From Patescibacteria group bacterium (lineage in GTDB: Bacteria > Patescibacteriota > Minisyncoccia > UBA6257 > 02-FULL-45-10c), in NCBI GenBank assembly GCA_028865335.1, contig JAGWKK010000003.1, forward strand, positions 1 through 37,321: a stretch of DNA of 37,321 nt, read 5' to 3'. The stretch's first letter is position 1. Every line of letters begins with the position of its first letter. The translations under genes were made by a program, and so were the position numbers. A model generated the notes under the pieces. It was not told the origin of the DNA, searched no databases, and saw only the letters and a program-made list of their open reading frames with translations. Of the stretch, positions 14,030 through 32,277 are shown piece after piece.

Positions 14030-14178
14030 TATGTCGGGTAGTAGAACTGCGATGAGTATATAACCCCTCTTCGCCGACGACTATCTTGCATAGGCCGTTT
14101 ACAATTCATTCACGTTCCGACTATAATTAAGACGTGTTATATACTGCGAAGAGTATCGCAGTTTCACTACCCGATATG
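14030..14178 (+). mobile_element. TATG-flanked structured element at the rpmB start codon
   Basis: TATG|TCGGGTAGTAGAACTGCGAT...ATCGCAGTTTCACTACCCGA|TATG, 141 bp between the repeats; the second ATG starts rpmB. Confidence 0.7.
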
Positions 14179-14364
14179 AAACAGTGCGCATTCTGTGGCA
14201 AGGGACACTTTATGGGAGGTACCCGTAAACTGCTCCGCGGCCACTACAACCCGACGAATTGGTCACGAAAGCAGGCAAACCTGCAGTGGTTTTCCGAACC
14301 CGGAAAGCCCGGCAGAGTGAAGGCGTGCGTGAAGTGCATCAAGCTCCGCAAAAAGAAAGCATAA
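14176..14364 (+). CDS. rpmB: 50S ribosomal protein L28, zinc-binding type
   Basis: MKQCAFCGKG...RKQANLQ...ACVKCIK, 62 aa. Confidence 0.88.
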   Translation: MKQCAFCGKGHFMGGTRKLLRGHYNPTNWSRKQANLQWFSEPGKPGRVKACVKCIKLRKKKA

Positions 14365-14422
14365 CGAAAAACAGCCGCAGGGCTGTTTTTTCGCGGCCTT
14401 GCCGGTATGCTATAGTCACAAC

Positions 14423-16111
14423 ATGAAAAGATTTCCCAGACTGCTGTGGGCCATACTCGTCTTCGCATTCATCATCCGGGCGTGGAATCTTGCCGCGCCG
14501 GACATGGCCGGCGACGATGCGACGTACGCATTCCGATCGGTCGGCTACGTGGATTTCATCGCAGCCGCCAATCGCCAGTCGACGCCGGTGACCTGGTTCG
14601 ATGAACCGCAATGGTGGCAGTCGCTTTCGTTCCACGACGCGCCGCCGCTCGTCTTCGCGCTGGAACACGCCTCGTTCGCGTTCTTCGGCGACAATGCCGT
14701 CGCCGCGCGCGTACCGTTCGTTCTCGCCGGGACGCTCTCCGTTTTCGCTATCTATCTGCTCGGCGAATTCATCGGCGGAGAATCACTCGGCCTCGCCGCA
14801 GCCGCGATCATGACGTTGCTGAATTATCCGGTATGGCTTTCCCGTATCGGCTACCTGGATGGCATGCTCATCCCCTCCATCCTGTTCTCGCTCTATTTCT
14901 TTTTCAAGGCACAGAAACAGCCGCGCAATTATTGGTACTGGGGGCTTGCCTGCGGCGCGGGACTGCTGACAAAATATACTTTTCTTTTTCTCGGTCCGGT
15001 ATTTCTCGGCGCGCTGCTGATCCGGCGCCGGCAGGCATTCAAATCCCGGGCGTTCCTCCAGGGATGCGCGATTGCGGTCCTGCTGCTCATGCCGGTGATT
15101 CTGTACAACGTCGGAATGTTCCGGGCCCGAGGACATCTTGATGCGGCGCTTTCAACGCTCATCGGCCAACACCCCGCCGACTTCGCCGGACTGGTGCGCA
15201 CCGGCGGATTCAACGCACTGGGCGTCCTCACTCAGTTCATGTCCGGCGGCGCATTCTCGCCGACTGTTCTCCTCTTCGCCGCAGTAGGCGTCGGAATACT
15301 CTACGCCACCCAATCGCTGGAGGTTTTCACAGTACTGATCGGCGGATTTCTGATGGCTCTCGCAGAGCTGTCCGTCATCGGCGGAATCGAATGGTACGGC
15401 GCGATCCTCGTCCCCTTCGTCGTTCTCTTCACCGCGCTTGGTGCCGTAACTCTGTTCCGCTATCTCAAAAATAAAATCGGCAATATCGCGACAATCGCCA
15501 TCATCGTTCTGCTTGCGGGAATGGAATTGACCGCGACCATCCAGAACCAGCTCTTGGCGCATCCGTTGGTCGCCTCCCCGCTTCTTCCGACTGCGTTCTC
15601 CTCACCGCATAACGGCTATGCCGAACTGGAAAATTACATCGGGCGATTCTATGCCGACCACGCCGCTTCGTCGGCCATCATCACCTATCAGGAAGACGGA
15701 AAACAGCTTGCCGATTATCAGAAATCAGCGATCCTGGCGCGTTTCGGCGGAACCGTCACCGGTCCGACCCAGGATCAGCTTGTCCTCTACGATGAGCGCA
15801 TGAATTGGTTTGCATCGTTATGGACCTTCGAGCGCCGGCGGCTGTATGACGCGGAGCCGATCCAGTCATTGTGGCAATTTCTGGAAAAGACGGACGGCGC
15901 GCATGATTTTTCATTCTACCGGAACTTCGGCATGAAAACCGCGACGATCATTCTCACCGCCGAAAATACGCAGGACAATACTCAAGTGGATCATGCCGCA
16001 GACGTCAGCGCATTCGCACAGAAAGTGGAAAGCGTCCTGACGCCGATCGCCGAAATCCGGAACGCGGACGGCCGGGTGGCATTCCGGGTATATACGCTTT
16101 CGCTACAATAA
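14423..16111 (+). CDS. GT-C fold membrane glycosyltransferase (ArnT/PMT_2, family 39-like)
   Basis: N-terminal TM then DDATY, HDAPPL, ARVP, SRIGYLD, GLLTKY; many TM segments; TGnTATAGT 6 nt before the ATG. Confidence 0.85.
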   Translation: MKRFPRLLWAILVFAFIIRAWNLAAPDMAGDDATYAFRSVGYVDFIAAANRQSTPVTWFDEPQWWQSLSFHDAPPLVFALEHASFAFFGDNAVAARVPFVLAGTLSVFAIYLLGEFIGGESLGLAAAAIMTLLNYPVWLSRIGYLDGMLIPSILFSLYFFFKAQKQPRNYWYWGLACGAGLLTKYTFLFLGPVFLGALLIRRRQAFKSRAFLQGCAIAVLLLMPVILYNVGMFRARGHLDAALSTLIGQHPADFAGLVRTGGFNALGVLTQFMSGGAFSPTVLLFAAVGVGILYATQSLEVFTVLIGGFLMALAELSVIGGIEWYGAILVPFVVLFTALGAVTLFRYLKNKIGNIATIAIIVLLAGMELTATIQNQLLAHPLVASPLLPTAFSSPHNGYAELENYIGRFYADHAASSAIITYQEDGKQLADYQKSAILARFGGTVTGPTQDQLVLYDERMNWFASLWTFERRRLYDAEPIQSLWQFLEKTDGAHDFSFYRNFGMKTATIILTAENTQDNTQVDHAADVSAFAQKVESVLTPIAEIRNADGRVAFRVYTLSLQ

Positions 16112-16115
16112 AAAT

Positions 16116-16199
16116 CGGGCTCGATTCCCGGCACAGAAATAAAATATTCCGCACATGCGGAATATTTTATTTCTGTCGGGCCGCCGGGAATCGGACCCG
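16116..16199. repeat. Long inverted repeat pairing the tRNA-Pro T-arm with its trailer
   Basis: Perfect 20-bp IR 16133-16152 / 16157-16176, extended by CGGGCTCGATTCCCGGC (16116-16132) against 16183-16199. Confidence 0.75.
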
Positions 16200-16246
16200 G
16201 GCTGCAAGACCCCCAGCCTCGCGTACTACCATTATACTACGGCCCG
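16176..16246 (-). tRNA. tRNA-Pro(GGG)
   Basis: CGGGCCG acceptor stem, anticodon loop CT-GGG-GG, T-loop TCCGATT (non-canonical C at 55); CCA not encoded. Confidence 0.9.
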
Positions 16247-16308
16247 CTTCTCCGCCAGGATACCGCAAATATTTTCTCCGCGCAAACAAAAAACCCCGCG
16301 GTGCGGGG

Positions 16309-17316
16309 TTACTTCATCAGCGGAAGGACTACGTCGAACATCCGTTGGACGTCGGCCTCCTCGCCGGTCATCGTGACCACCTTATGCGGAACATGGGAAG
16401 GCAGGACGAAACGCTTCGCCTCGGCGATCTTCTTCGCCACCTTCTGGGGATCCATTTCTTTGCGGCGCAATAGATTGCGGGCCAGCACCTCGTCCGAAGC
16501 GGGCTTCAGAACGATGAAGGAAATGTCCAGCTCTTCGCGCGCGGCGTAATACGCCATCGCGCCTTCGGGCGTTAACGCGAACATGCCGTTGAACGACTGA
16601 AGCGTCTCCTTCACCGCATCGAGCGATGAGCCATAGGCAACACCGAGATAATCGCTATATTCGAAAAAGGCCTGATGACGAAGTCCGTGATCGAATTGGG
16701 CGCGGCTCACATGATGATAGTAATCTGCGTCTCCCGGATCGCGCATCGGGCGCGTGGTGACATTTCGAATAGGGCGTATCAAAGCGCCGCAATACGACCA
16801 GAGCCTATTCATGCAATAGTTCTTTCCCACCGCGCTCGGACCGACGAAAACAATCAATCGGTGATAGCGCGAGCGGACATCCGCAAACACATCGCCGTAC
16901 TCGGGCAGTAGGCTCAAGCGCGCATATTCAGGATCCCACCTCTCAAAAAAGGCTTTTCCGGAATCATCGTAGCGGAAGATCCGGATGCGGGGATATTTCT
17001 CCCATGTCACCCGATCTCTCACCTCTCCCATGACGCCCTCGGAAATGCCAAGAACTCCGGTACCGCCGGGACACTTCGTTTGAACCCCGAGCCCGAGTTC
17101 CAAGATCACCTCTCTGCCGACATAGCCGTCTTCGATATTCGTCTCCCTGAATTTCCCGTCAGGGCCGCGCTCAAACGCAAACGGATTGATCGGTTCATAA
17201 CCCTTCGATCGTATGAAGTCCTCATAGACGTCGCCAAAACGCTTCATGACGTGAGGATGCGCAACGTACAGGACGCGCGAACCGCCAGTCCGTGGACCGA
17301 GCCAGGAAGGAACCAT
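16309..17316 (-). CDS. Fusion of an NDT-like N-terminal domain and guanylate kinase
   Basis: C-terminal half GPSAVGK, TTRPMR, FFEY...YGS, FIVLKP (guanylate kinase). N-terminal half LYVAHP...GYEPINP...KC...GISEGVMGE matches the nucleoside 2-deoxyribosyltransferase-like pattern. Confidence 0.75.
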   Translation of the reverse strand: MVPSWLGPRTGGSRVLYVAHPHVMKRFGDVYEDFIRSKGYEPINPFAFERGPDGKFRETNIEDGYVGREVILELGLGVQTKCPGGTGVLGISEGVMGEVRDRVTWEKYPRIRIFRYDDSGKAFFERWDPEYARLSLLPEYGDVFADVRSRYHRLIVFVGPSAVGKNYCMNRLWSYCGALIRPIRNVTTRPMRDPGDADYYHHVSRAQFDHGLRHQAFFEYSDYLGVAYGSSLDAVKETLQSFNGMFALTPEGAMAYYAAREELDISFIVLKPASDEVLARNLLRRKEMDPQKVAKKIAEAKRFVLPSHVPHKVVTMTGEEADVQRMFDVVLPLMK

Positions 17317-17397
17317 TCTTTGCTCCGCTGTAAGAGAACTATCTCTAACTTAAAGCACCGCGACTCATTTTGCAAGAAAAAACTGTTCTTCGCCAAA

Positions 17398-17417
17398 CCT
17401 GCCTGCCGGCAGGCAGG
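17398..17417. repeat. 20-bp perfect palindrome CCTGCCTGCCGGCAGGCAGG
   Basis: Second copy (19/20) lies inside mnmA at 22009-22028. Confidence 0.8.
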
Positions 17418-17509
17418 GCTTCGAAAAGTTATTCTCGTACATTGATCTCGTAAATAAAATCGTACACGAGAATAAAAACGGCCCCCTCAAACGCGAGGGG
17501 GCCAGGGAC

Positions 17510-17758
17510 CTACCAGCACCGACGGGCCAGGAATTGCTCCATGGGCACCGTTGCGAGGTCGTAGTGCTTTGTCGTATGCAGATTGACGAACTTCTTCGGC
17601 ACGACAACGACAGTCGTCCGCGGCGCGACCAGAGAGATCGGCTGCTTCATCCGGTCCGCGAGATCGCGCTTGGCGCTCATCGGATCCGGAAAGTCCATCA
17701 CTGCGTGAAAGACCTTCCCTCCTTCCGGCTCAACGAATCTGAGGTAGTAGCTGGGCAT
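17510..17758 (-). CDS. Small hypothetical protein
   Basis: 82 aa from MPSYYLRF; GGAG SD; promoter TTGACA-N17-TATTAT at 17816-17844; terminator near 17475-17505. Confidence 0.65.
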   Translation of the reverse strand: MPSYYLRFVEPEGGKVFHAVMDFPDPMSAKRDLADRMKQPISLVAPRTTVVVVPKKFVNLHTTKHYDLATVPMEQFLARRCW

Positions 17759-17859
17759 TGCTTGCTCCGTGGTGGGATGCGGGGTGACCTTCGGTTCTGA
17801 AGAACTACAGATAACATAATACACTATTCGTAATCATCTGTCAATATGATCTGGGCAAA

Positions 17860-18049
17860 GAAAAATCCCGCTCAACCGTTTCCTGAGAAATCAGGCGGGT
17901 CAGCTCATCATGGCGCCACGGCGCTATGAAATTCGCCATCCCTAATAAAACGATTTGTAGGAAAATGAGCGGGATCTCTATGATCCCCCACATAAATTGA
18001 ACCCTTCTTACACTTCTGTTTTTTACCGTTCAACTTATGTGGGGGATCA
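17860..18049 (-). ncRNA. Candidate two-hairpin non-coding RNA
   Basis: TGnTATACT at 18055-18063; 22-bp stem 17981-18002 / 18028-18049; second long stem closed by ATCCCGCTCA/TGAGCGGGAT and followed by a U-tract. Confidence 0.5.
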
Positions 18050-18158
18050 CTTTCAGTATAGCATATCCACTTTTCCGCAGCACGATGATGGTCGAATAAA
18101 TTGACAACCACTCCTTCAAAACGCTACACTCTGAGCAGAACTTCATACCGGAGCAATA

Positions 18159-18572
18159 ATGAAAAAGAAGGACGAGGAAAAGAGCAAGAAAGATCCGCGA
18201 GTCGACTGCGAAATGTGCGCATGGATGTACAGCGATGAGGAATCTTCGCCGAAGCCGATTCTGGGATCGAAGAGGGTCCTCGCATTTCCGGGTAGCATGC
18301 ACGGAGGCCGGATGGAAAGTATCCTCCTGGTTCCCAAAAAGCATTTCGAGTCGGCGGAGAAGCTCTCCGGCTCGCCTGAATACGTGCAGGAAATCCACGT
18401 TCTGCGCCTGCGCCTGGCAAGACTTCCCGGCCTGCAGCGGAAAGTCCGCGTGGCACACCTGGTCTGGAACAATCCTTGTCGCTATCCCCGATCCGCACCC
18501 ATGCTGAAGAACCATGCCCACGCCGAACTCATCCTTGAGCGAAAGAGTTCCTATTCCTCCAACCGCAGATAG
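18159..18572 (+). CDS. HIT-family nucleotide-binding protein, variant triad
   Basis: DCEMC, LLVPKKH, and HAHAELI in place of HxHxHxx; TTGACA-N18-TACACT promoter and GGAG SD. Confidence 0.7.
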   Translation: MKKKDEEKSKKDPRVDCEMCAWMYSDEESSPKPILGSKRVLAFPGSMHGGRMESILLVPKKHFESAEKLSGSPEYVQEIHVLRLRLARLPGLQRKVRVAHLVWNNPCRYPRSAPMLKNHAHAELILERKSSYSSNRR

Positions 18573-18600
18573 ACGCAAAAGCTCCGACACGATCGGAGCT

Positions 18601-19212
18601 TTATGATTTTACCGGAAGGCCGTACAGCTTTTTATATACCTCGTATGCCAGTTTGGCGCCGTTCACCGCCCGGTGCGGATGCTCTTCGCCATGCAGTCCA
18701 AGAAACTCGGCGACCCGGCTCAGGCCGATTTTTTCCAGCGAGTATCCTTTCGCTTCAGCGATCGCCTTGGCGATGCTGAGCAGATCCAACCGGTGATAAT
18801 CAAGCAGCGACTGGATGCCGGTCATCGCGTACGCCGCATCCAGAAACGCGCCGTCAAAAGTCACGTTATGCGCGATAAGCACCGCGCCCGCCGCCTTGTG
18901 ATTGAACAGCGTCAACGCGTCGTACAAACTCTTCGCATCACGCCATTCTTTCTCGTCATAGCCGTTCACTGCAAGCGCTTTCGGATCCGCCAGAGCCATG
19001 CGGTCGGGACGAACCTTGATGTCCAGCGTATCCAGGATGTCCAGCGTATGCGGATCTGCGAGTACCAGGCCGATTTCACAGATCTCATGCCACGGCTGAA
19101 ACGTACCGCTCGCGTAGTGCGTCGGCTGCAGGCCGGTCATTTCCAGGTCGGTAAATGCAAGCGGCCGATCCAGAAATTTCATCGGCTCGCCGGAAGGAAT
19201 CTGCGTATCCAT
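18601..19212 (-). CDS. DEDDh-family 3'-5' exonuclease
   Basis: FTDLEMTGL, AHNVTFD and HRAVNG (the last Asp appears replaced by Gly). Confidence 0.85.
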   Translation of the reverse strand: MDTQIPSGEPMKFLDRPLAFTDLEMTGLQPTHYASGTFQPWHEICEIGLVLADPHTLDILDTLDIKVRPDRMALADPKALAVNGYDEKEWRDAKSLYDALTLFNHKAAGAVLIAHNVTFDGAFLDAAYAMTGIQSLLDYHRLDLLSIAKAIAEAKGYSLEKIGLSRVAEFLGLHGEEHPHRAVNGAKLAYEVYKKLYGLPVKS

Positions 19213-19217
19213 GGTAT

Positions 19218-19739
19218 CTATTCCAGGATGCTGTCCAGGTTTACGTCGTAGAGAATCTGCTCGCGGACGCTCTTGTAGTCCACCAGTTCCTTCTTATCGA
19301 ACCAGATCTTCGTTTCCGCTTCGGCGTCTTCGATGCTGGAAGAGGCGTGCACGAGATTGCGGACCGCGCGGCCGTCCTTGTCGGCCAGGTCGTAGGAATC
19401 CAGCGTGAAATCACCGCGGATCGTCCCCGGTGCGGACTGCAACGGCTCGGTCGAGCCGACCAGCTTGCGCACCACCGGAATCGCCTTGTTCCCCTCCAGC
19501 ACCATCGCCACCACCGGACTCGCCGAAAGGAAAGCGACCAGATGCTGCAGAATTTTTTCCGGCAGATTCGGGTTGGTCTTGTAATGCGTATACGCCTGGT
19601 CCTTCGTCGGAAGCACGAGCTTCATCGCGACGATCTTCAATCCCGCGTTCTCAAACCGGCTGATGATCTCCCCCGCCAGATTCCGCTGCACCGCGTCCGG
19701 CTTCAATAATACTAATGTCCGTTCTTTGGTATTTGCCAT
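19218..19739 (-). CDS. ndk: Nucleoside-diphosphate kinase
   Basis: ERTLVLLKPDAVQR, APGTIRGDF, RNLVHAS. Confidence 0.96.
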   Translation of the reverse strand: MANTKERTLVLLKPDAVQRNLAGEIISRFENAGLKIVAMKLVLPTKDQAYTHYKTNPNLPEKILQHLVAFLSASPVVAMVLEGNKAIPVVRKLVGSTEPLQSAPGTIRGDFTLDSYDLADKDGRAVRNLVHASSSIEDAEAETKIWFDKKELVDYKSVREQILYDVNLDSILE

Positions 19740-19740
19740 A

Positions 19741-19775
19741 TGGATAGCGTATAGCTAATAGCAGATAGCTTATAG
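19741..19775. repeat. Degenerate 7-bp tandem repeat in the ndk leader
   Basis: TGGATAG CGTATAG CTAATAG CAGATAG CTTATAG. Confidence 0.7.
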
Positions 19776-19854
19776 TGAATAATAATGTGTATTGAGTTAT
19801 TTATACTACACAATCTCAAATAAAAAAAGCCCCCGACCCCGCCGGGGTATTTCT

Positions 19855-21249
19855 TTATTTCTTCTTTTTGAATTCAATGCCCAGTTCTTTCAGCTGATCC
19901 GCGCTCACATCGCTCGGCGCCTCCATCATAAGGTCGCGGCCGTCGCCGGTTTTCGGAAACGCCATGACTTCGCGGATGTTCGGCTCGTTCTGCAGAATCA
20001 TGATCAGCCGATCCACGCCCGGCGCGATGCCGCCATGCGGCGGAGCGCCGCTGCCCAGCGCCTCCAGCATGTGTCCGAAGTTCCGGTAGATGCGTTCTTC
20101 CGCAAAGCCCATGATCTCGAACACCCGCTTCAGCGCCTCCGGCTGATGGTTACGGATGCTGCCGCCGCCAACTTCAAAACCGTTCAGCACGATATCGTAC
20201 TGCGTCGTCAGAATCTCGCCGATATTCTTCTTCTCCATCAGCCACTCGCGATGCTCCGGTTTCGGCGACGAGAAAGGATTGTGCGTGAAGGTCCATCCGG
20301 CGTTGTCCGTCTTTTCAAAAAACGGAAAATCAACCACCCAGCAGAATGCGAGCAGGTCCGGATCGTCTTTGTTTTCGCGGATGTCCGGCCGGTCATTGCC
20401 GTATTTCTCCATCGCATCCTTGTAGGTGATGCGCGGAAACGGGATCTGCTGGATCTTCTTGTGCGGATAGAGCGTCTTCACCATATCGATCAGCATCTCC
20501 TCCACGACGCCCATGACATCATTCTCGTCCACGAAACTCATTTCCATATCGAGCTGGGTGAATTCCGGCTGACGGTCGCCGCGTGTATCTTCATCGCGGA
20601 AACAGCGTGCCACCTGGAAATACCGCTCCATGCCCGCGGCCATCAGCAGCTGCTTGTACTGCTGCGGCGACTGCGGGAGCGCGTAGAACTTGCCCGGATA
20701 CAAACGGGACGGTACGAGATAGTCGCGGGCGCCTTCCGGCGTGGACTTGCTCAGCACCGGCGTCTCCACTTCGATGAATTCCTTGCCGCGCAGGAAATCA
20801 CGCATATGCGCGATGACCTTGTCACGGTTGCGGATATTGTTCTGCATCCGTTCGCGGCGCAGATCGACATAGCGGTACTTCATGCGGATCTCCTCGCCCA
20901 CTTCCTTGCCGTCGGTGCTGAGATCGAACGGGGGCGTCGTCGCTTCATTCAGAATCTCCAGCCCTTCAGCGAGCACTTCAAAAGCGCCGGTCGCGAGGTT
21001 CGGGTTCACCAGCTTTTCCGGACGCGCGTTCACCTGGCCGGTGATTTTCACCACCCATTCGGAGCGCAGTTTGCTCGCCTTTTCGTAGAGTTCTTTGTCC
21101 TTGCCGATAAAGACGACCTGGCAGATGCCGCTCCGGTCGCGGAGGTCGATGAAAATAAGCTTGCCGTGATCGCGGCGGACCGCAACCCAGCCGAACAGCT
21201 CGACTTTCTCGCCTGACTTCTTGGTGATGTCTGCAATAAGCGTCCTCAT
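19855..21249 (-). CDS. aspS: Aspartate--tRNA ligase, short form lacking the GAD insert
   Basis: RRDHG...FIDLRDRSG, TPEGARDYLVP, LPQSPQQYKQ, CFRDED, GAPPHGGIAPGVDR; 464 aa. Confidence 0.96.
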   Translation of the reverse strand: MRTLIADITKKSGEKVELFGWVAVRRDHGKLIFIDLRDRSGICQVVFIGKDKELYEKASKLRSEWVVKITGQVNARPEKLVNPNLATGAFEVLAEGLEILNEATTPPFDLSTDGKEVGEEIRMKYRYVDLRRERMQNNIRNRDKVIAHMRDFLRGKEFIEVETPVLSKSTPEGARDYLVPSRLYPGKFYALPQSPQQYKQLLMAAGMERYFQVARCFRDEDTRGDRQPEFTQLDMEMSFVDENDVMGVVEEMLIDMVKTLYPHKKIQQIPFPRITYKDAMEKYGNDRPDIRENKDDPDLLAFCWVVDFPFFEKTDNAGWTFTHNPFSSPKPEHREWLMEKKNIGEILTTQYDIVLNGFEVGGGSIRNHQPEALKRVFEIMGFAEERIYRNFGHMLEALGSGAPPHGGIAPGVDRLIMILQNEPNIREVMAFPKTGDGRDLMMEAPSDVSADQLKELGIEFKKKK

Positions 21250-21319
21250 AAAATTACTTCCCTAATATACACTGTTTTCAGGAAAAGAAAAAGCTCCCGT
21301 TTCGAGAGCTGAAAAATCC

Positions 21320-21475
21320 TTACTTTTTGGAAGTGATGACGACGCCGAGAGTCGCAATCAAAGCCATAACCGCAACGCAGCAAACCGCATTGCCATCGCC
21401 GCCAGGATTCGCATACGCAGTCAGCGCCACCGCGCCCCAGATCGCCACTACCGCAATTCCTGATCCGATCGTCAT
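21320..21475 (-). CDS. Small two-TM membrane protein
   Basis: 51 aa from MTIGSGIAVVAIWG; GGAGG SD; hairpin downstream. Confidence 0.6.
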   Translation of the reverse strand: MTIGSGIAVVAIWGAVALTAYANPGGDGNAVCCVAVMALIATLGVVITSKK

Positions 21476-21584
21476 TGTCGCCTCCGATTCGCCATGTCTT
21501 TGAACCTCTCTCAGGTTAAACAAACAAATACTGTTAGTCAAGAAAAAAGCCCCTGCCGGTTTCCCGGCAGGGGCATGATGAAGG

Positions 21585-24437: not shown

Positions 24438-24461
24438 CCGCTCATCTCCGGATATGTAATG

Positions 24462-24492: not shown

Positions 24493-24502
24493 CAGAATCA
24501 TC

Positions 24503-26293
24503 TTATTCCTCATCGGAGCCGTCATCCGGTCCATTCTCTTCAGCCTGCGCACTGAGCGATTTCTCAAGCGCCGCGCGGAGATCGTTGATGTCCACTTTCT
24601 TTTTGACGGGCGGAGCGGGTTTCGCGGGAGCCGGCTTGGGCTCCTCGGGTTTCAATGCACTGCGCAGATCGACTTCTACTGCCGGTCGAGGAGCGCGGAC
24701 TTCCTGCACGCGCGGAGATTCGGTGACGCGGGGAGACGCGGGGCGCGGAGCGGATGGAGCCTGCTGCGGAGGTGTCTGCGGACGCAGCGGCCGGAATCCG
24801 TCGGAAACCGGAGGCTGGTCCTGGCGTTCGCCGTGCCGGTATTCAATTTTCTGCTCGCGTCGCGGCTCACGGCGAAAATCACGGCGCATGTCTTTTACGC
24901 CGTCTCGCGAAGCGGAATCCACTTTCGGCTTCAAGACCGCCGCCAGCGGCTGCTCAGCTCTCCGGGGAGGCCTGTCGTTCGCCGCCGGTTCCGCGCCGGT
25001 GGAAAGCCACTCGGTCGCGATCTTCTCCTCTACCGCCTCTTTCGGAGTCCCGAAAACCCGGCGGCTGTTTTCAATGATCACGTCCGTATACAGATGCTCG
25101 CCGCGCAGATACGGCGGAATGCTCGAAGCCGAAAACGGCCGCGAAGAAATGCCGTCAATCAGCAGCTTGGTATAGAAATTGTACTTCGGGAGATTGACGA
25201 AGTCATTCGCCATGAAATCGGGCTGGAATTCCTTTTCCAGGAATTCGGCGTCTTCCGCGCCGACACGGAACACCACCATCGTGCCGACGTTGCCGAAAAT
25301 GGCATCGCGCACCCGGGTATTGGTGTCGTGCGTGAGCTGGCCGATATACTGATGCGCGACGATCAGGCAGAGGTGGTATTTGCGCGCCTCGGAAAGGATG
25401 TTCGCGAACGAATCGGTGGCGAAGTTCTGGAACTCGTCGACATACAGATAGAAATCGCGCCGGTCCTTTTCGGGCATGTCCACGCGCGACATCGCGGCGA
25501 GCTGCAGCTTGGTGATCATCATCGCGCCGAGCAGCGCCGAATTGTCTTCGCCGATCTTTCCTTTGGACAGGTTCACGATCAGGATCTTCCCCTCATCCAT
25601 AACCTTGCGCGGATCGATGGACGAATGCGCCTGGCCGAGAATGTTGCGGATCAGCGGATTCGTGACGAATTGGCCGACTTTGTTCTGGATGGCGGCCGTC
25701 GCTTCGGTCTGGAATTTCTCGTTCCACTTCCCGAATTCGTTGATCCAGAATCCTTTCACCACCGGATCGTTCAGGTTGGAGACGACGATTTTGCGGTACT
25801 TGGCGTCATTCAGCATGCGCATGATGCCGAGCAGCGTGGAATCCGGGGACTCCAGCAGCGCGAGCAGCGTGTTGTTCAGGATGTATTCCATACGGCCGGA
25901 CCATGCGTCCACCCAGATCTTCTTGAACACGCCCATGATACCCGAAGCGACCAGGTGCCGGAACTCCGGATTGACCTGTTCCAACGGATTGAACGCCACC
26001 GGGAATTTGGTATCGGACGGATTGAAATAGATCACGTCATTGATGCGCTCCTCGGGGACGTAGTCCAGGATTTTTTCGGCGAATTCACCGTGCGGATCGA
26101 TGACCGCAACGCCGTTGCCGGCGCGCACGTCGGCGATCACCATGTTCTCCAGCAGGTTTGATTTACCCATACCCGTCTTTCCGACCACGTACATGTGGCG
26201 GCGGCGGTCATCCACCTTGATGCCGAACTCCTTCCGCTGATTGCGGAAATTGATGATGCCAAACGGCGTAATGTCCTGATTTTCAAGTCCCAT
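24503..26293 (-). CDS. VirD4/TraD/HerA-like P-loop ATPase with a disordered C-terminal tail
   Basis: DRRRHMYVVGKTGMGKS (Walker A), IDPHGE, YLYVDEFQNF (Walker B), LSEARKY, AHQYIGQL. Confidence 0.88.
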   Translation of the reverse strand: MGLENQDITPFGIINFRNQRKEFGIKVDDRRRHMYVVGKTGMGKSNLLENMVIADVRAGNGVAVIDPHGEFAEKILDYVPEERINDVIYFNPSDTKFPVAFNPLEQVNPEFRHLVASGIMGVFKKIWVDAWSGRMEYILNNTLLALLESPDSTLLGIMRMLNDAKYRKIVVSNLNDPVVKGFWINEFGKWNEKFQTEATAAIQNKVGQFVTNPLIRNILGQAHSSIDPRKVMDEGKILIVNLSKGKIGEDNSALLGAMMITKLQLAAMSRVDMPEKDRRDFYLYVDEFQNFATDSFANILSEARKYHLCLIVAHQYIGQLTHDTNTRVRDAIFGNVGTMVVFRVGAEDAEFLEKEFQPDFMANDFVNLPKYNFYTKLLIDGISSRPFSASSIPPYLRGEHLYTDVIIENSRRVFGTPKEAVEEKIATEWLSTGAEPAANDRPPRRAEQPLAAVLKPKVDSASRDGVKDMRRDFRREPRREQKIEYRHGERQDQPPVSDGFRPLRPQTPPQQAPSAPRPASPRVTESPRVQEVRAPRPAVEVDLRSALKPEEPKPAPAKPAPPVKKKVDINDLRAALEKSLSAQAEENGPDDGSDEE

Positions 26294-26344
26294 AGGAAAA
26301 AGCTAGGAAGTTAAAGTTAAAAGGCTAAATCGAAAATATGCCGG

Positions 26345-27634
26345 CTATACCAACGGAATATTGGACGGCGGTTCGCCCTTGCGCGTTTCCAAGCGGCGCA
26401 GCAGCGGAGACTCCACCGTGACCAACGGGAAGTGGAAGATCGTCGCGAGTTCTTCGGTATTCAAAATTGACGCGCTCGGCGGGAACCAGCGCAGCCGGTA
26501 CCGGTCGTAGATCGCGCGCTTGCGGACATGGATCTTCTGCTTGCGGAACCAGCTCTTCGTCGTCAGCTTTTTGGACGTCACCAGCGTCATCGTATCCCCC
26601 AGCGGACGGAAGCTGTTCATGTCCTGCGTGTTGAACTGCTTGAACGCTCCGTTGACCGCGGCGACGTTTGCCGGCGTAAAACTTTCCGCATGATCGATAT
26701 AGACGAACCGGACCGCGGACTCGAAGCCCAGCTTGGAAATCTTGCGTTCCACCGCTTCCAGAATATTCTTTTCGCCCGGCGAAAGATTGACCATCTTGAG
26801 GCCCTCTTCCTTTTTCGGAGCACCGCCCCATGCCGGATATTGGCGCGGCGCGGAAACCAGGTTCAGCACAAACTCCCGCAGGCCGCTGACCAGCGCCTCC
26901 AGTCCTTTTTTCTCGGCGACCTTCTTGCGCTGCATGATCTTGTCGCGGAGCGCTTCGCCCTCGGCCTTCCACTTATCGGAAACCGGCTTGATCAGGTACT
27001 GCAGCCAGATCGCCTCGCCTTCTTTCAGGCGGGACATGACTTCGGTGATCGCCGCGATCGGATCCAGGCGCTGTTCATCCACGTTCGCCTCGAAGAATTC
27101 ATAGGTCTTGATCGGATACGCGTTCGGCTTCGCCAGCACGAAATCGCTCCCCCAGAGATCATAGGATTGGTTCGGCAGGACTTCGGGCATCAGATCCGTA
27201 TAATCCTCGGCTTCGGAGATTTCGGCGTCCGGATATTCGGAATAGATCGCCGATTCGATGAGATTGCGGTGCGGCTTCGCGCAGCGGACGAAAAAATGCA
27301 CTCCGCCGCCGTAACCGATCAGCTCGAAGGTGAACCACAGCAGATCCGATCCCTTGAAATACTTGTCTTCAAAGCCGGGGTCGGACGCGTACACCGCGTG
27401 CAGCGTGGAAAAGATATTCTCCATCGCTTTCGGCGTCTTCAGGATGTTCCGCGGGATCTTGATTTCGAGCAGAACCCACGGAATGCTCAGCTTCCACAGG
27501 CGGTTTTTCCCCCATACCCAAAAATCCCTCCAAATGAAAAAGAGGGCTGCGGGAACGACGATCCACCAGCTCACACTGAACACCCGCGCAATCGATTGCG
27601 CAATGCCCAACGCGACGCTATTCCAGTCCACCAT
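26345..27634 (-). CDS. Membrane-anchored partner of the adjacent ATPase
   Basis: N-terminal TM, LLEIKIPR...PKAME, SEYPDAEI, YPIKTY, LNTEELATIFHFP; recalled as a recurrent CPR family. Confidence 0.8.
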   Translation of the reverse strand: MVDWNSVALGIAQSIARVFSVSWWIVVPAALFFIWRDFWVWGKNRLWKLSIPWVLLEIKIPRNILKTPKAMENIFSTLHAVYASDPGFEDKYFKGSDLLWFTFELIGYGGGVHFFVRCAKPHRNLIESAIYSEYPDAEISEAEDYTDLMPEVLPNQSYDLWGSDFVLAKPNAYPIKTYEFFEANVDEQRLDPIAAITEVMSRLKEGEAIWLQYLIKPVSDKWKAEGEALRDKIMQRKKVAEKKGLEALVSGLREFVLNLVSAPRQYPAWGGAPKKEEGLKMVNLSPGEKNILEAVERKISKLGFESAVRFVYIDHAESFTPANVAAVNGAFKQFNTQDMNSFRPLGDTMTLVTSKKLTTKSWFRKQKIHVRKRAIYDRYRLRWFPPSASILNTEELATIFHFPLVTVESPLLRRLETRKGEPPSNIPLV

Positions 27635-27772
27635 ATCAGGTAGTAGAAATTCGAGCGCTACGCGTTTCGAATTTGGCGATTAATAGTAGTCATCATGTTC
27701 AGGACATATGTCAGCCGAAGCAACGTTAATGAATACCGGCGGAAACCACTCGAATTTTCACTACCTGACATA
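27632..27772 (-). mobile_element. TATG-flanked structured element at the start codon of 26345..27634
   Basis: Minus strand TATG|TCAGGTAGTGAAAATTCGAGTG...CGCTCGAATTTCTACTACCTGA|TATG, 133 bp. Confidence 0.65.
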
Positions 27773-27839
27773 TATGTTTATTCTAGAACAATTAGTTAAA
27801 AGAACAAAAAAGGACCTACCCGAAAACGCACCCGAGAAA

Positions 27840-28886
27840 CTAGGCAAGATTCACCGTGTAGCGACCGTCATCCATGCGGGTGAAGTGCTTCCGATTGCGG
27901 AGATTGATCAGAACCGTGTTCCGCTTGAGCAGGCGCTCATTGGAAACAAGCTTCAAAAGCTCCTCCGGATTGAGCGGCCCGTGATCTTTCAGGATGCGCG
28001 CCATGACTTCGCGCGCCGTTCCCGGCATCGCGCCGGATTCACGGAGAGAATACAGCCCGCGGCCTACGAGCACGAAGCGCTCGTCTTTGATCAGTTCGTT
28101 GTGCACGGTCTGCATGTGCGCCGCCTTCTTGGAATCCTTGCGGACTTTGTTGATCATATCCGCGATATCCGCGAAATGGATCGGCTGGGTGTTCTTCTTG
28201 AGCACCAGATACGCCCAGTCACGGACGGTCTTCGGATTGACTTCCGGCCAATGCGCAAGGCCGAAATCGCCGAACGTGTTGACGTGGAAATGCTTGGAAG
28301 CGGAAATATAGTTGAGGGCGATGAGATCCTTCAGATTGTGCGGCTTCGCCACTTCGGCGAACACCTCGTCGATGTTCTGATGGGAAACGATCTTGTCGCG
28401 CTTGCCCTCCATCGTCTTCACGAGGCGGGAAAGGAATGCCTGGGCTTTCTTGCGGTCCTCTTCGGCCAGATACCAGATCGCGAACAGATTCGTATCCTCC
28501 GGCAGGAACTTCATCTCGCCCGAAACATCGAGCAGGAAATGGACTTTGTTGCCGAAATTCGCGACATTCGCGTCAGTGACCATCAGCTTCAGATCAGCGA
28601 GAAGCAGGTCTTCCCGGCGAAGTCCGCCCATGTTCTTGAGGTGCGTTTTCACCATGTCCACCAGCTGCGCCGCCTCCCCTTTCTTCATGAGGGGCTTCAG
28701 GGACTGCAAAGCACCCGCCTCAATCTGGCGGATACGCTCACGCGTGACATCCATGGACTCCCCGATTTCGGCGAGGGTCTTCGGACTGCCGTCCTTGATG
28801 CCGTAGCGACCTTCAATAACGGTCCGCTGGCGGGCATCGAGATTAGTGAGTAATTGGCTGACAAGCTTTCCGACGCTGATATTCAT
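27840..28886 (-). CDS. Sigma70 region-4 HTH fused to a HARE-HTH/winged-helix region
   Basis: RYG...TLAEIG...[10 protein letters not shown] at the N-terminus; DWAYLVLK...IHFADI...TVHNELIKDERFVLVGRGLYSL later; no sigma region 2. Confidence 0.8.
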   Translation of the reverse strand: MNISVGKLVSQLLTNLDARQRTVIEGRYGIKDGSPKTLAEIGESMDVTRERIRQIEAGALQSLKPLMKKGEAAQLVDMVKTHLKNMGGLRREDLLLADLKLMVTDANVANFGNKVHFLLDVSGEMKFLPEDTNLFAIWYLAEEDRKKAQAFLSRLVKTMEGKRDKIVSHQNIDEVFAEVAKPHNLKDLIALNYISASKHFHVNTFGDFGLAHWPEVNPKTVRDWAYLVLKKNTQPIHFADIADMINKVRKDSKKAAHMQTVHNELIKDERFVLVGRGLYSLRESGAMPGTAREVMARILKDHGPLNPEELLKLVSNERLLKRNTVLINLRNRKHFTRMDDGRYTVNLA

Positions 28887-28904
28887 AATATTTATTATAG
28901 GGAT

Positions 28905-28933
28905 AGTATATCACTTTCTGTTCTTTGGGTCAA
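28905..28933 (-). promoter_or_regulatory. Sigma70-type promoter, proximal
   Basis: TTGACC-N17-TATACT with extended TG. Confidence 0.75.
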
Positions 28934-28991
28934 CCCCCCTCCACTACGGAGGCCGTTTCCTGCGATACACTGCTCTTTTTTAATTGTTTAT

Positions 28992-29020
28992 ATAATATCA
29001 CAGTTCGATTTTAAGGTCAA
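28992..29020 (-). promoter_or_regulatory. Sigma70-type promoter, distal
   Basis: TTGACC-N17-TATTAT with extended TG. Confidence 0.7.
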
Positions 29021-29221
29021 CCCCACACATACTGAAGACCATATGGGTTACGAAATCTATAGATTTCGCAGTCTTCGGTATGTGTGGGGGTCAACCCCGC
29101 ACCTTTTGTGGAGTGATTATCTAATCTGAGGAATTTCAAATGGAGGAACTTCCTTCAATGTATGTCAATATAGGCCGCGTAATAGGATTCGGCCCTGCTC
29201 CACAAAAGGTGCGGGGTCAAC
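29016..29221. mobile_element. Tandem pair of GTCAAC-flanked hairpin elements
   Basis: GTCAAC at 29016, 29090 and 29216; 19-bp IRs at 29021-29039/29071-29089 and 29095-29113/29198-29216. Confidence 0.65.
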
Positions 29222-29241
29222 TCCCCCGGGGACTCTGGAGC

Positions 29242-29284
29242 AAAAAAACAGCCCCACACTTACGTATAAGTGTGGGGCTGTTTT
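29242..29284 (-). terminator. Terminator after secF
   Basis: AAAACAGCCCCACACTTA-CGTA-TAAGTGTGGGGCTGTTTT. Confidence 0.8.
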
Positions 29285-29287
29285 CCG

Positions 29288-30178
29288 CTATTTGCTCTTG
29301 GATCGGTGGAAGAATGTCAGCATCGGACTCGCTACGAAGATGGACGAGTACGTACCTACGATGGTTCCCACCAGGATCATCAGCGTGAACCAGCTCAGGG
29401 AGGTGGCACCGAAGAGATACATGGCGATCAATACGAGAAAGAGCGTCAAGGAGGTGTTCACCGAGCGGGCGAAGGTCTGCCTCACGCTGGCGTTGATGAT
29501 CGGGCCGAGGTTCTCCTTATTCTTGGAAAGCAGCAGGTTCTCGCGGATGCGGTCGAAGACGACGATCGTATCATGGACCGAGAATCCCATGACCACCAGC
29601 AGCGCGACGATGAAGTTCGTATCGATCTCCACGCCGAATTTCCAGCCCCAGAACGCGAAGGCGCCGGCCGGAATCAAAGCGTCATGGAACAGGGTGATCA
29701 GGGTCGCCACGCCGTATTTCCAGGAACTGACCGGATAGGAAACTTTGCGGAACGCGAACGCCACATATAATGAAATGCCGAGCAGCACCAGCACGAACGC
29801 GATCAATGCGTTATTGCGCAGCTCGGATCCGATCGCCGGACCGATGCTCGCAAAGCTCATTTCCTGGAAGGAGCCGAACTGCTGATTCATCTGCGTCGCG
29901 ATGCTGGTGTGCAGGTCTTCGGTCATTTCCTTCGCGCGGATGGAAACCTCATTCGCTGTCGCGCCGGTGCGGACTGTGACATCCTGGGCGCCCTGGCTGG
30001 CCAGAAAACTCTGCAGGGAGTTCATATCCACCGGTTGCGTAAACTGAACCTGCCAGAGCGTGCCGCCGGCGAAATCGATCCCCTGTTTGTAACCGAAGCC
30101 GATCATGGAAGCGACTGCCGCGACCGTCAGGACCGTGGAGAGGCCGATGAAAACGAATTTGTATTTGATGACGTCCAT
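29288..30178 (-). CDS. secF: Protein translocase subunit SecF
   Basis: GIDFAGG, IGPAIGSEL, LFHD, GFSVHDTIVVFDRIREN, RSVNTS, GTYSSIFVA. Confidence 0.96.
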   Translation of the reverse strand: MDVIKYKFVFIGLSTVLTVAAVASMIGFGYKQGIDFAGGTLWQVQFTQPVDMNSLQSFLASQGAQDVTVRTGATANEVSIRAKEMTEDLHTSIATQMNQQFGSFQEMSFASIGPAIGSELRNNALIAFVLVLLGISLYVAFAFRKVSYPVSSWKYGVATLITLFHDALIPAGAFAFWGWKFGVEIDTNFIVALLVVMGFSVHDTIVVFDRIRENLLLSKNKENLGPIINASVRQTFARSVNTSLTLFLVLIAMYLFGATSLSWFTLMILVGTIVGTYSSIFVASPMLTFFHRSKSK

Positions 30179-30182
30179 AATG

Positions 30183-31460
30183 TTATTTGTCCTCTTTAGG
30201 TTTCGGATTCCTCATAAAGACCTTCAACAGCGTCCGGGTCACCGTGATGGCGCTGAACATACTGATCACGACACCCATCAACAGGGTCAGAGCGAAACCT
30301 TTGACGAAGCTGGAGGTGAAGTAGAACAGGATGATGGAAGTCAGGATGGTCGTGAAGTTCGAATCGCGGATGGATGTCCAGGCGCGTTCAAAGCCCGCGT
30401 CGATAGCCGCCATCTTCGGCAATCCCCGCTTCAATTCCTCCTTCGTACGCTCAAAGATAAGCACGTTCGCGTCCACAGCCATGCCGATGGAAAGGATGAA
30501 ACCGGCGATACCGGCAAGTGACATCGTCACCGAGAACAGCTTGAACGCCGCCATCGCGAACACGATATACATCGCCAACGCGATCACCGCGAAGATGCCG
30601 AGTACATGATAGTAGAGAACCATGAAAAGCATGACCGCGAGCGTTCCCCAGAGGCCCGCCTGCAGCATCTTATTGAAAGAGTCCTGGCCGAGCGCCGCGC
30701 CGATGGTCTGCTGGTTCACCAGCGTGATCGGAGCCGGCAACGCGCCTGCGTTGAACCGCTGTACGAGCTGCTGCGCTTCCTGCAACGTGAAGTTGCCGGT
30801 GATCTGCGCCTTACCGCTTGTGATCGCCTCCCGGACCGTCGGGGCGGTCAACAGGTTACCGTCCAGAAAGATGGCAAGCGGCTTGCCCACGTTGCGCTGG
30901 GTGATGTCGCTGAAAAGTTTGGCGCCGTCGCCCGTGAATTCAAGCGCGATCTGCGGCGCATTGGTCACGCTGTCGAACGTCAGCTGTGCGTCCTTCACGT
31001 AGCGGCCGTTCAATTCGGTCGGCTTGAAGCGGACTCCTATATCGGTTGTCGTCGCCTGTGCTGACGGCGCGGCGGAATCATCCACTTCGCCGAACATCAG
31101 GAACGGCGTTTCGCCGATCAGCTGGATCGCCTGATGCACATCTTTCACGCCGGCAAGTTCCACCAATAAGCGATAGGAATCGCCCGTGCGCAGCGTCACC
31201 ACATTCGGTTCGCTGACGCCGAAAAGGTTCACGCGTTTTTCAATGACATCGCGCAATCCTGCCATGACCGAATCACGATCCGTGACCGCGACGTTGGTCA
31301 TATCCACCTGATAGATCAGCTGAGTGCCGCCCACCAGATCGAGGCCCAATTTCCACGGCAGATAGGTCTTCGCGAAGTTCCCCTGCGGATAGACAAAAAC
31401 CCCGCACACTACCGCGAGAAGGACTGTTGCCGCCAAAAGCATTGCATATTTCGCACGCAT
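30183..31460 (-). CDS. secD: Protein translocase subunit SecD
   Basis: LGLDLVGG, RVNLFGVSEP, GALPAP, IGMAVDANVLIFER, IRDSN, VKGFA. Confidence 0.96.
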   Translation of the reverse strand: MRAKYAMLLAATVLLAVVCGVFVYPQGNFAKTYLPWKLGLDLVGGTQLIYQVDMTNVAVTDRDSVMAGLRDVIEKRVNLFGVSEPNVVTLRTGDSYRLLVELAGVKDVHQAIQLIGETPFLMFGEVDDSAAPSAQATTTDIGVRFKPTELNGRYVKDAQLTFDSVTNAPQIALEFTGDGAKLFSDITQRNVGKPLAIFLDGNLLTAPTVREAITSGKAQITGNFTLQEAQQLVQRFNAGALPAPITLVNQQTIGAALGQDSFNKMLQAGLWGTLAVMLFMVLYYHVLGIFAVIALAMYIVFAMAAFKLFSVTMSLAGIAGFILSIGMAVDANVLIFERTKEELKRGLPKMAAIDAGFERAWTSIRDSNFTTILTSIILFYFTSSFVKGFALTLLMGVVISMFSAITVTRTLLKVFMRNPKPKEDK

Positions 31461-31488
31461 GAAATCTATACTACTCTTTCTTTAAAAA

Positions 31489-32127
31489 TTATTCAACCGT
31501 CACGCTCCGGATAACCGCATCCACCGTCGGATGGTCGTTCTGGTTGCGCGGCAAGTTCACGATCTGATCGACGACATCCATGCCGCTCAGCACGTGTCCG
31601 AAGATCGTATAATTGTGCGGCAGCGCCTGATCAGCCTGCATGATGAAGAACTGGCTGCCGTTCGTGTTCGGACCGGCGTTCGCCATCGCGAGCGTCCCGC
31701 GGGTATAGCCCTGCTGATACGACGGCGTCTGCGGATTCAGTTCATCGGCGAATGTATAGCCGGGCCCGCCCATGCCGTCATTGGACCAATCGTTGTCTTT
31801 GCTGTTCGGATCGCCGCCCTGGATCATGAATCCCGGAATCACCCGATGGAACTTGGTACCGTCATAGAATCCTTTCTGCGTCAGCGTCAGGAAATTCTGC
31901 ACCGTCTTCGGCGCATCCTTCGGATAGAGTTCCAACTGAATATTACCGAAGCTGGTCTTCATCAGTATCACCGGATCGCCCGCAATCTGCGGCGTCGCGG
32001 TCGCCACAACTTCCTGCGCCGCCACCGTCGGTGTCGCAGCCGCATGACGCGTCAGATAATACGCTCCGGCGAAAAAGCCGACCAATACCACCGCCACCAC
32101 CAGCCCCCGAATAATGTCTGTAGTCAT
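31489..32127 (-). CDS. Membrane-anchored cyclophilin-type peptidyl-prolyl isomerase
   Basis: APKTVQNF, FHRVIPGFMIQGGDP, LAMANAGPNTNGSQFFI; N-terminal TM; start placed at MTTDII. Confidence 0.92.
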   Translation of the reverse strand: MTTDIIRGLVVAVVLVGFFAGAYYLTRHAAATPTVAAQEVVATATPQIAGDPVILMKTSFGNIQLELYPKDAPKTVQNFLTLTQKGFYDGTKFHRVIPGFMIQGGDPNSKDNDWSNDGMGGPGYTFADELNPQTPSYQQGYTRGTLAMANAGPNTNGSQFFIMQADQALPHNYTIFGHVLSGMDVVDQIVNLPRNQNDHPTVDAVIRSVTVE

Positions 32128-32277
32128 ACCACGTAGTGAATCTGCGGGGTGTATCCGCAGCATTTAATGTTTATATTTAAATTTCTTAAACTTCTTCGTT
32201 ATAGCCAAACTTGGCATCGCCTGATAGTTTCACTGCGGATACATTAAATGCCAACCGCAGATCTACTACATGGCATA
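32125..32277 (-). mobile_element. TATG-flanked structured element at the cyclophilin start codon
   Basis: Minus strand TATG|CCATGTAGTAGATCTGCGG...CCGCAGATTCACTACGTGG|TATG, 145 bp; ends alignable with the rpmB element. Confidence 0.7.

Follow-up and report, generated by a model that had tools for sequence, protein, structure and literature searches.

The window examined here is the whole of a 37,321-nt stretch of DNA, contig C8 (JAGWKK010000003.1) of a Patescibacteria genome to which we refer as G000 (GCA_028865335.1; 859,786 bp in 61 contigs, 54.8% G+C). It carries three short elements, which we class as MITEs (transposable elements of the miniature inverted-repeat type), and each of them lies between two TATG direct repeats, the second of which holds the ATG of a long open reading frame (ORF), of 62, 429 and 212 aa at copies 1, 2 and 3, respectively. 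The initial annotation had placed the elements at these positions, with -10-like boxes ahead of the upstream ATG of copies 1 and 2, and the sequence is as it stated (Table 1). Here we use F for the orientation in which the GTAGTAGA arm is nearest to the promoter and R for that in which the GTAGTGAA arm is nearest to it. As a correction to that annotation, the copy at 27636 is inverted relative to its gene when compared with the other two copies in the window.

The gene labels were upheld in part. The cyclophilin was identified by its Pfam match (Table 1), whereas the label rpmB was only weakly backed, by a full-length collinear match of residues 2–56 to positions 3–57 of the L28 model TIGR00009 that fell below the cut-off (E 0.006, 17 bits). 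Pfam gave no match for this 62-aa protein, here called L28-like, and neither Pfam nor NCBIfam gave a match for the 429-aa ORF. Scanned against Rfam at the gathering threshold, the whole window matched two tRNA genes only (16176–16246 on the minus strand and 33373–33443 on the plus strand), and a scan of 13950–14250 at E ≤ 1 gave nothing. The relatives compared at the three loci were G001–G004, which are congeneric with G000, and G005 from a neighbouring genus.

Table 1. Coordinates of the three MITE copies in the window and of the parts around them (R1, covariance model of the family)
Feature	Position	Strand	Remarks
-10-like box TATATT, leaderless promoter of copy 1	14018..14023	+	7 nt ahead of the upstream ATG, counted to its A; region homologous in congeners with empty alleles
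Upstream TATG of copy 1 (original +1/start position)	14030..14033	+	single ATG of the empty alleles of G002–G005 has the same place relative to the -10 box
MITE copy 1, 141 bp, GTAGTAGA arm promoter-side (F), GCG-arm subfamily	14034..14174	+	R1 E 4.8e-24
Downstream TATG (14175–14178) and 62-aa L28-like ORF, start ATG 14176	14175..14364	+	orthologues of 66–93% identity in 5 of the 5 relatives searched
-10-like box TAGAAT of copy 2	27780..27785	-	8 nt before the upstream ATG
Upstream TATG of copy 2 (CATA on the plus strand)	27769..27772	-	
MITE copy 2, 133 bp, GTAGTGAA arm promoter-side (R), TCG-arm subfamily	27636..27768	-	R1 E 3.8e-16
Downstream TATG (27632–27635) and 429-aa ORF, start ATG 27634	26345..27635	-	orthologues of 72–78% identity in 5 of 5 relatives, all element-free
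Upstream TATG of copy 3	32274..32277	-	terminator-like hairpin and A/T-rich stretch ahead, also in the empty allele of G004
MITE copy 3, 145 bp, F orientation, GCG-arm subfamily	32129..32273	-	R1 E 8.3e-26
Downstream TATG (32125–32128) and 212-aa membrane-anchored cyclophilin ORF, start ATG 32127	31489..32128	-	PF00160 E 7.6e-48

Mobility and insertion at start codons

The elements are mobile and non-autonomous, as had been proposed from the window alone; empty alleles in congeners attest to it, together with 4-bp duplications of many different sequences elsewhere. At all three loci, alleles with a single ATG and a homologous promoter were found in congeners. At the L28-like gene the element is missing from G002, G003, G004 and G005, each of which has one start ATG after the homologous promoter, and G001 carries an R copy with different arms where G000 carries an F copy. 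The 429-aa gene, which is free of the element in all five relatives, has there TAAAAT/TACAAT-type boxes 6 nt ahead of its single ATG, and the cyclophilin gene has a clean empty allele with a single TATG in G004. Another gene, encoding an S12-like protein (N-terminus MPTIRQ), carries a copy in G001 (F) and in G008 (R). Since the copies at the L28-like and the S12-like genes stand in opposite orientations in different species, the same start codon was hit independently.

Matches to R1 were detected in 16 of 41 related genomes, G000 included, with 12 of the 22 other genomes of the same family among the carriers; in a sample of 150 genomes from the whole phylum, 2 were matched (E ≤ 1e-6). When the genomes of 185,579 species were scanned with an 18-nt pattern, 7 loci among the 80 matches listed were confirmed by the model and the rest were mostly chance; the confirmed loci are labelled Portnoybacteria, Yanofskybacteria, Parcubacteria and, in one case, Saccharibacteria, all labels of Patescibacteria type.

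The copies in the relatives (76 in number, 58–165 bp long) carry identical 4-bp flanks in 59 cases, and 8 more have flanks that differ by one base. The identical flanks are TATG/CATA in 41 copies and are spread over 11 other 4-mers in the other 18 (e.g., TTTT/TTTT, AAAA/AAAA and TTGA/TTGA), making 13 different 4-mers. Identity of the flanks across so many sequences thus indicates that 4 bp of the target are truly duplicated. Of the 76 copies, 56 adjoin an ATG that opens an ORF of 50 aa or more, with three of these counted after a 1-nt correction of the boundary, and the remaining ones are found at TTTT or AAAA, at TTGA beside TTGAC(A/T), or a few nucleotides upstream of a start. Short forms of the family, of 58–81 nt, also occur. 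Hairpins of 58–78 nt at G039:C1:194624-194681, G039:C1:208731-208788, G039:C2:9417-9486 and G014:C4:11751-11828 have TTGA or TTTG duplicated and abut TTGAC(A/T); they sit in -35-like boxes, and the intact box is rebuilt downstream.

Within G000, nhmmer and R1 gave 14 full copies (129–163 bp) and one half copy. The flanks of the full copies are TATG/TATG in 12, CATG/TATG in one and TTTG/TTTG in one. Thirteen of them adjoin the start of an ORF of 62–689 aa (one such ORF is truncated at 68 aa by the end of its contig), and the TTTG copy has just a 37-codon frame downstream. The host ORFs include FtsZ, D-Ala-D-Ala ligase (Ddl), a class-V aminotransferase, histidyl-tRNA synthetase (HisRS), a solute-binding protein and the cyclophilin. 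Family models begin 6–15 residues from the N-terminus of these ORFs, as in FtsZ (15), Ddl (6) and HisRS (14).

For the background we removed the elements from G000 and used crude ORF calls. Of the 4493 TATG sites counted in this manner, 280 coincide exactly with ORF starts (407 at the upper bound), 613 are otherwise intergenic and 3473 lie within coding sequence. The initial annotation had inferred that the element targets initiation codons and rebuilds the ATG, and this was supported across the genome, with 13 of 14 copies at ORF starts although just 280–407 of the 4493 TATG sites are putative starts; the probability of finding 13 of 13 copies at starts by chance is 2.8e-14 over all TATG sites. 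Moreover, a TANNNT box stands 4–9 nt upstream of 11 of the 14 insertion sites, compared with 85 of the 280 ORFs that start with TATG (p 3e-4), and a logo of 67 reconstructed target sites displays the -10 box and TATG only. In the crude calls for G000 as a whole, 280 of 882 ORFs start with TATG (the base before the ATG being T in 280, C in 143, A in 104 and G in 64) and 169 of 867 have a TANNNT box 4–9 nt upstream; both frequencies are consistent with widespread leaderless expression.

As about 91% of G000 is coding by these calls, so that most insertions are expected to be lethal, one could also imagine that the elements insert at random at TATG or A/T-rich sites and that the start pattern merely records survivorship in a compact genome. 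The 21 of 90 copies that occupy other sites, with other 4-mers, would suit this explanation. However, even when the sites are limited to non-coding and start TATG, the probability of 13 of 13 copies at starts is 6.5e-6, and the -10 box is enriched further among those starts that were hit. The independent hits on the same start codons in different species are also hard to reconcile with random insertion, and it is not obvious that a 140-nt hairpin would be neutral where it parts a leaderless promoter from its ATG. We therefore regard survivorship, as the whole explanation, as improbable.

Orientation is linked to the arm type. In the 69 start-associated copies, GCG arms were found 29 times in F and never in R, and TCG arms 3 times in F and 35 times in R, with two copies bearing CTTCGGCG arms reassigned to the TCG type. 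An orientation fixed per subfamily suggests that insertion is directional with respect to the asymmetric TATG, or else that the host gene's tolerance depends on orientation.

Terminal inverted repeats of about 20 nt and the AG/GA asymmetry between the arms, both described in the initial annotation, recur in all 13 aligned copies of G000. Its claim that differences in one arm are compensated in the partner arm is borne out by the same alignment, in which 12 of 28 consensus pairs are changed on both sides. Pairing was found in 95.1% of the cells against 85.3 ± 1.0% in shuffled alignments (0 of 500 shuffles were as high), it dropped to 31–46% when the partner was slid by 1–3 columns, and in helices 1–2 98.5–100% of the cells pair. 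Between the first and the second ATG, the predicted RNA fold has an energy of -52.2 kcal/mol in copy 1 (z-score -6.8 when compared with dinucleotide shuffles), -48.1 kcal/mol in copy 2 (z -5.6) and -55.9 kcal/mol in copy 3 (z -7.2). The host transcript is thus predicted to begin with a folded 5′ leader whose stem ends on the AUG.

Strong predicted folds, a position between promoter and start, and co-varying pairs would also be expected from a structured 5′ leader encoded by the host itself, that is, a non-mobile cis-regulatory RNA. We find this extremely improbable, since the empty alleles in congeners contradict it and the elements are flanked by duplications, occur in both orientations and at non-genic sites, and match no Rfam family. 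Folding of 89 copies on both strands also revealed no advantage of the sense strand: the mean difference was +0.95 kcal/mol in F copies (n = 32, p 0.29) and -0.20 kcal/mol in R copies (n = 34, p 0.60). As the fold energy has no strand bias, we claim no function or selection at the RNA level.

GIY-YIG coding units between the same arms

A longer copy enclosing a transposase of the HUH or DDE type had been envisaged in the initial annotation. A longer copy was indeed found, and the gene that it encloses encodes neither of these enzymes but a GIY-YIG nuclease. At G000:C28:19252-19560, a 309-bp unit with the same arm type is flanked by TATG on both sides, is preceded by a TATAAT-N6-ATG promoter and followed by a 328-aa ORF, and its locus is empty in G001, G003 and G004. 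It encodes an 87-aa GIY-YIG protein (PF01541, E 8.9e-17) in the same direction as the host gene, and this protein resembles the UPF0213 structures 1zg2 (E 1.8e-7) and 1ywl (E 8.3e-7) and, weakly, SLX1 (7wme, E 0.004). Five more arm-flanked units, which hold its closest homologues, were identified in G008, G001, G011, G016 and G040, with (T)ATG duplicated and each at a different host gene. The coding units, from the same ultra-small bacteria (Patescibacteria/Parcubacteria) as the MITEs, are ~290–325 bp long and of R polarity, and their nucleases are single-domain proteins of 87–102 aa with residues conserved across the six units.

Four of the six units have a nuclease ORF that shares the frame of the captured, promoter-proximal ATG and reads through the arm, giving 95–102 aa, and that stops 8–21 nt before the host ATG. 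The G011 unit has no ATG at the canonical start. MITEs and coding units match collinearly over the terminal ~15–27 nt of each end only, including the AG/GA difference.

The MITEs themselves have a coding capacity limited to short upstream ORFs (uORFs) of 6–38 codons. A 10-codon uORF, MPGSRSA.GI followed by TAA, TGA or TAG, is present in 18 of the 32 F copies, and R copies have uORFs of 6–37 codons whose peptides (MPGSENS.., MPLSETSV..) are the same arm-encoded peptide as the N-terminus of the nuclease. We considered a conserved leader peptide as a general requirement and rejected it; in our reading the uORF characterises a subfamily and is what remains of the arm-encoded N-terminus. Inspection by eye, with no formal scan, for an outward promoter or a Shine-Dalgarno sequence revealed neither a suitably spaced TANNNT box nor a GGAGG-like motif at the gene-proximal end of the elements.

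Homologues of the C28 nuclease were found in 38 of the 41 related genomes, often in several copies. A database search with the nuclease yielded 408 clusters (E ≤ 1e-10), which go by the name of 'GIY-YIG nuclease family protein [Patescibacteria group bacterium]' or of 'putative endonuclease'. In 29 of 32 sampled public homologues the peptide MP(G/V/L/S)S(E/R) encoded by the arm was present, at residue 1 in 28 and internally in one. The inverted repeat is thus already being called by gene-finding programs as the N-terminal part of 'GIY-YIG nuclease family proteins'. Five of the 32 have no Met at the canonical start, and one starts with the other arm (MPGSR). R1 matches occur in 7 of the 8 genomes with a close homologue (E ≤ 1e-22) and in 9 of the 33 others (p 0.003, kinship being ignored in this test). 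A narrow search of viral contigs found no relative of the 102-aa nuclease. At G025:C2:11473-11809, a 75-nt short form with a TGGA duplication stands 6 nt upstream of a GIY-YIG ATG, with no 3′ arm, and this locus may be a decayed or rearranged coding unit.

Taken by their structure, the short elements are MITEs of a known kind: they are short and non-coding, have terminal inverted repeats and a fixed 4-bp duplication with empty sites, and share the ends of a longer coding element. We consider it probable that they are derived from the tiny GIY-YIG elements, which exploit leaderless promoters, and this is in our opinion the best explanation of the whole. As for the enzyme, we are inclined, if slightly, to believe that the GIY-YIG nuclease moves both the MITEs and the coding units.

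One may instead suppose that these are ordinary MITEs of some undetected DDE transposon (e.g., IS1380/piggyBac-like or IS5/IS701-like), with the GIY-YIG gene as cargo or as a nested selfish gene. Terminal inverted repeats with a fixed 4-bp duplication are the classical DDE signature, and the duplication of a preferred tetranucleotide, the ends starting with CC and the empty sites that look precisely restored all resemble piggyBac and IS1380. Nevertheless, no DDE gene of the families searched was found between the arms, where the sole gene seen (six units in six genomes) is the GIY-YIG one, and the target is a promoter TATG rather than TTAA. The families searched were PF01609, PF00665, PF13358, PF01797 and PF07282. 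DDE_Tnp_1 (PF01609) was present in 15 of 151 genomes of the order, and a single rve-type gene in G019, but PF01609 was absent from G000 and from the 7 sampled genomes of the family, and the arm motif was found at none of 8 fetched PF01609 transposase loci of the order. In MITE-rich genomes, PF13358 and PF07282 each occurred in 0 of 5 and PF00665 in 1 of 5. Moreover, a nuclease frame that runs through the arm from the target ATG is hard to square with passive cargo, and the orientation, being fixed per subfamily, is thus unlike what symmetric DDE ends would give. A DDE origin is, on these grounds, unlikely.

Movement by Y1 (HUH) transposases, as with REPIN/REP-type hairpins or the IS200/IS605-derived PATE, appears to us very improbable. 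Y1_Tnp genes do occur in 4 of 5 genomes searched, G000 included, and the elements recall REPINs and the REP-RAYT system in being extragenic and in their two inverted hairpin halves, each end with a local hairpin and a GTAG motif, which pair into one hairpin of ~100–140 nt. REPINs, however, lack a target duplication and share sequence with the flanks of RAYT genes, whereas the RAYT-like genes here have a different palindrome; the six Y1 loci are flanked by unrelated palindromes of their own and none of them has the arm motif. PATE insert 3′ of a fixed tetranucleotide with no duplication, while the matching flanks of our elements comprise 13 sequences, and 4-bp duplications of so many different 4-mers are not made by HUH single-strand transposition.

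Proposed mechanism and relation to described systems

In the reading that we favour, the cycle runs as follows. The element inserts immediately behind the ATG that a leaderless gene has at or near +1, where a -10 box is followed after ~6–8 nt by TATG, and duplication of the TATG leaves one ATG at the promoter and rebuilds a second ahead of the host gene. A coding element gains in this manner the host promoter and, in most copies, a start codon, its ORF reading from the captured ATG through the inverted repeat. The MITEs would have lost the gene and kept the ends, and therefore the same target choice as the coding element. Since MITEs need no expression, their location suggests that targets are chosen by the insertion machinery or through selection at the host level rather than through selection for nuclease expression.

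The nuclease may work on arms for which pairing is a requirement and may cut with a stagger of 4 nt, and the co-variation of the arms may reflect recognition of folded DNA by an SLX1-like nuclease. The host gene would then be translated from a transcript led by a hairpin, either by reinitiation after the upstream ORF or after trimming of the stem by RNase III, whose gene is present.

Several points weigh against this reading. The link between nuclease and movement is a putative one drawn from sequence, and GIY-YIG nucleases are not known to act as transposases; at 87–102 aa, moreover, the nuclease lacks a distinct DNA-binding domain (16.8 bits with the model for group I intron endonucleases, whose cut-off is 56 bits). 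What MITEs and coding units share is limited to the ends and does not support common descent of their interiors. In two of the six units, including that of C28 in G000, the nuclease ORF does not share the frame of the captured ATG and would depend on an ATG of its own, 27 nt into the element. The GCG-arm MITEs are oriented opposite to the coding units found, with only one public protein (P0059) suggestive of a coding unit in their orientation, and among the loci examined no coding unit with these arms was found in the MITE-bearing G015, G017 and G019. The absence of a strand bias in fold energy does not favour the expression model either. Finally, 20 of the 76 copies in relatives and 1 of the 14 in G000 lie away from start codons, the crude ORF-based gene calls behind the background are imprecise, and selection after insertion could explain part of the start-codon bias.

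Should the nuclease prove to be the transposase, the system as a whole would form a new class. We put forward, tentatively and as a serious possibility, a new class of prokaryotic transposon with an autonomous unit of ~300 bp, in which a UPF0213/SLX1-like GIY-YIG nuclease of 90–100 aa serves as the transposase and the MITEs are non-autonomous riders. Such a unit would have no promoter and usually no start codon, and its insertion after the +1 ATG would make a bicistron of nuclease and host gene. If true, these units would rank with the smallest known mobile elements that are autonomous, and GIY-YIG would join the short list of enzymes that move prokaryotic DNA transposons. It would also be a new parasitic strategy, in which the promoter and the start codon of leaderless genes are taken and the damage is mended by the target duplication. 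The elements would then mark the transcription and translation starts of leaderless genes in uncultivated Patescibacteria, and long hairpins would stand at the 5′ ends of essential mRNAs (FtsZ, Ddl, HisRS and the L28-like protein), so that ribosome access to a start codon behind a hairpin becomes a directly testable question.

In agreement with the initial annotation, the elements are not recognised as a described family: in addition to the lack of an Rfam match, neither MITEs that target start codons nor GIY-YIG elements flanked by arms were found described in the open full-text literature, including the excerpts seen of PMC1564403, PMC12455944, PMC11270868 and PMC3184786, with ISfinder and the subscription literature lying outside this search.

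A MITE-like parallel is found in Neisseria. Correia elements are 100–160 bp long, have terminal inverted repeats, duplicate TA, and are co-transcribed as long hairpins that are substrates of RNase III; to our knowledge, the enzyme that mobilises them was never identified. The elements described here resemble them in size, terminal inverted repeats, a short duplication, many gene-adjacent copies and a predicted co-transcription as long hairpins. Unlike Correia elements, with their TA and no tie to start codons, they duplicate 4 bp, mostly TATG, are placed on the ATG with which leaderless genes start and possess a coding relative.

On the side of the nuclease, small GIY-YIG proteins of the UPF0213 family (YhbQ/BH0048-type) are similar to it over the whole domain. 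The coding units are also like free-standing and intron-borne GIY-YIG homing endonuclease genes, such as I-TevI and the Seg genes of T4, in that GIY-YIG is the sole gene and the function of the host gene is preserved. Homing endonucleases, however, have a separate DNA-binding domain and are copied into the cognate allele by recombination, with no inverted repeats or target duplication. Here, unlike in I-TevI and Seg, a bare domain of 87–102 aa is accompanied by inverted repeats and duplications, and the six units are at six unrelated host genes.

Two further systems are comparable in their position or in their host. The REP2 repeats of Neisseria and the IR repeats of Borrelia are described, in the part of PMC3184786 consulted, as lying directly upstream of ORFs and as tied to promoter or start-codon function. 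According to the same excerpt, they come with a promoter, with a ribosome-binding site and with an ATG of their own and have no terminal inverted repeats, whereas our elements bring no such signals and duplicate the host ATG instead. Insertions in rRNA genes of the candidate phyla radiation (CPR) encode GIY-YIG proteins, are not in introns and seemingly are not spread by homing (PMC11270868, in excerpt), and of what has been published this comes closest to our elements. They come from the same bacterial group, and the likeness is drawn from their description; that excerpt of PMC11270868 makes no mention of inverted repeats, duplications or start-codon targeting.

Other small mobile hairpins in these genomes

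A second MITE family, unrelated to the first, is found on a leaderless start codon at G000:C28:18311-18399. This element is 89 bp long with arms beginning TCCCACACATAAC, and the layout of the locus is TAGAAT-N6-ATGA, the element, TGAAG and then a 269-aa ORF starting with MCGMKIYSW, with TGA/ATGA duplicated. A GIY-YIG ORF flanked by TCCCACACATAAC-type arms was identified at G000:C55:36075-36311 and also in G020. Parasitism on start codons may be a general habit that several arm families share.

Nested in the MITE copy at G000:C36:3502-3664 is a 20-nt palindrome, CCTGCCTGCCGGCAGGCAGG, which recurs next to small GIY-YIG genes, within 5′ portions of tRNA genes that are duplicated there (G005:C13 and G004:C14), and looks like a further tiny mobile hairpin. 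Small GIY-YIG genes were also observed inside or against tRNA genes in G000 (C61 ~14988-15224, C30:21601-21813 and C33:15411-15632), with 15–17 nt of the tRNA repeated on both sides, which suggests a different mode of insertion for related nucleases. RAYT-like Y1 ORFs of ~230 aa, flanked on both sides by a TTAAGGACTTGCGATGTCCTTAA-type palindrome (G000:C14:8-184, G001:C13, G008:C33 and G019:C20), form a separate REP-like system.

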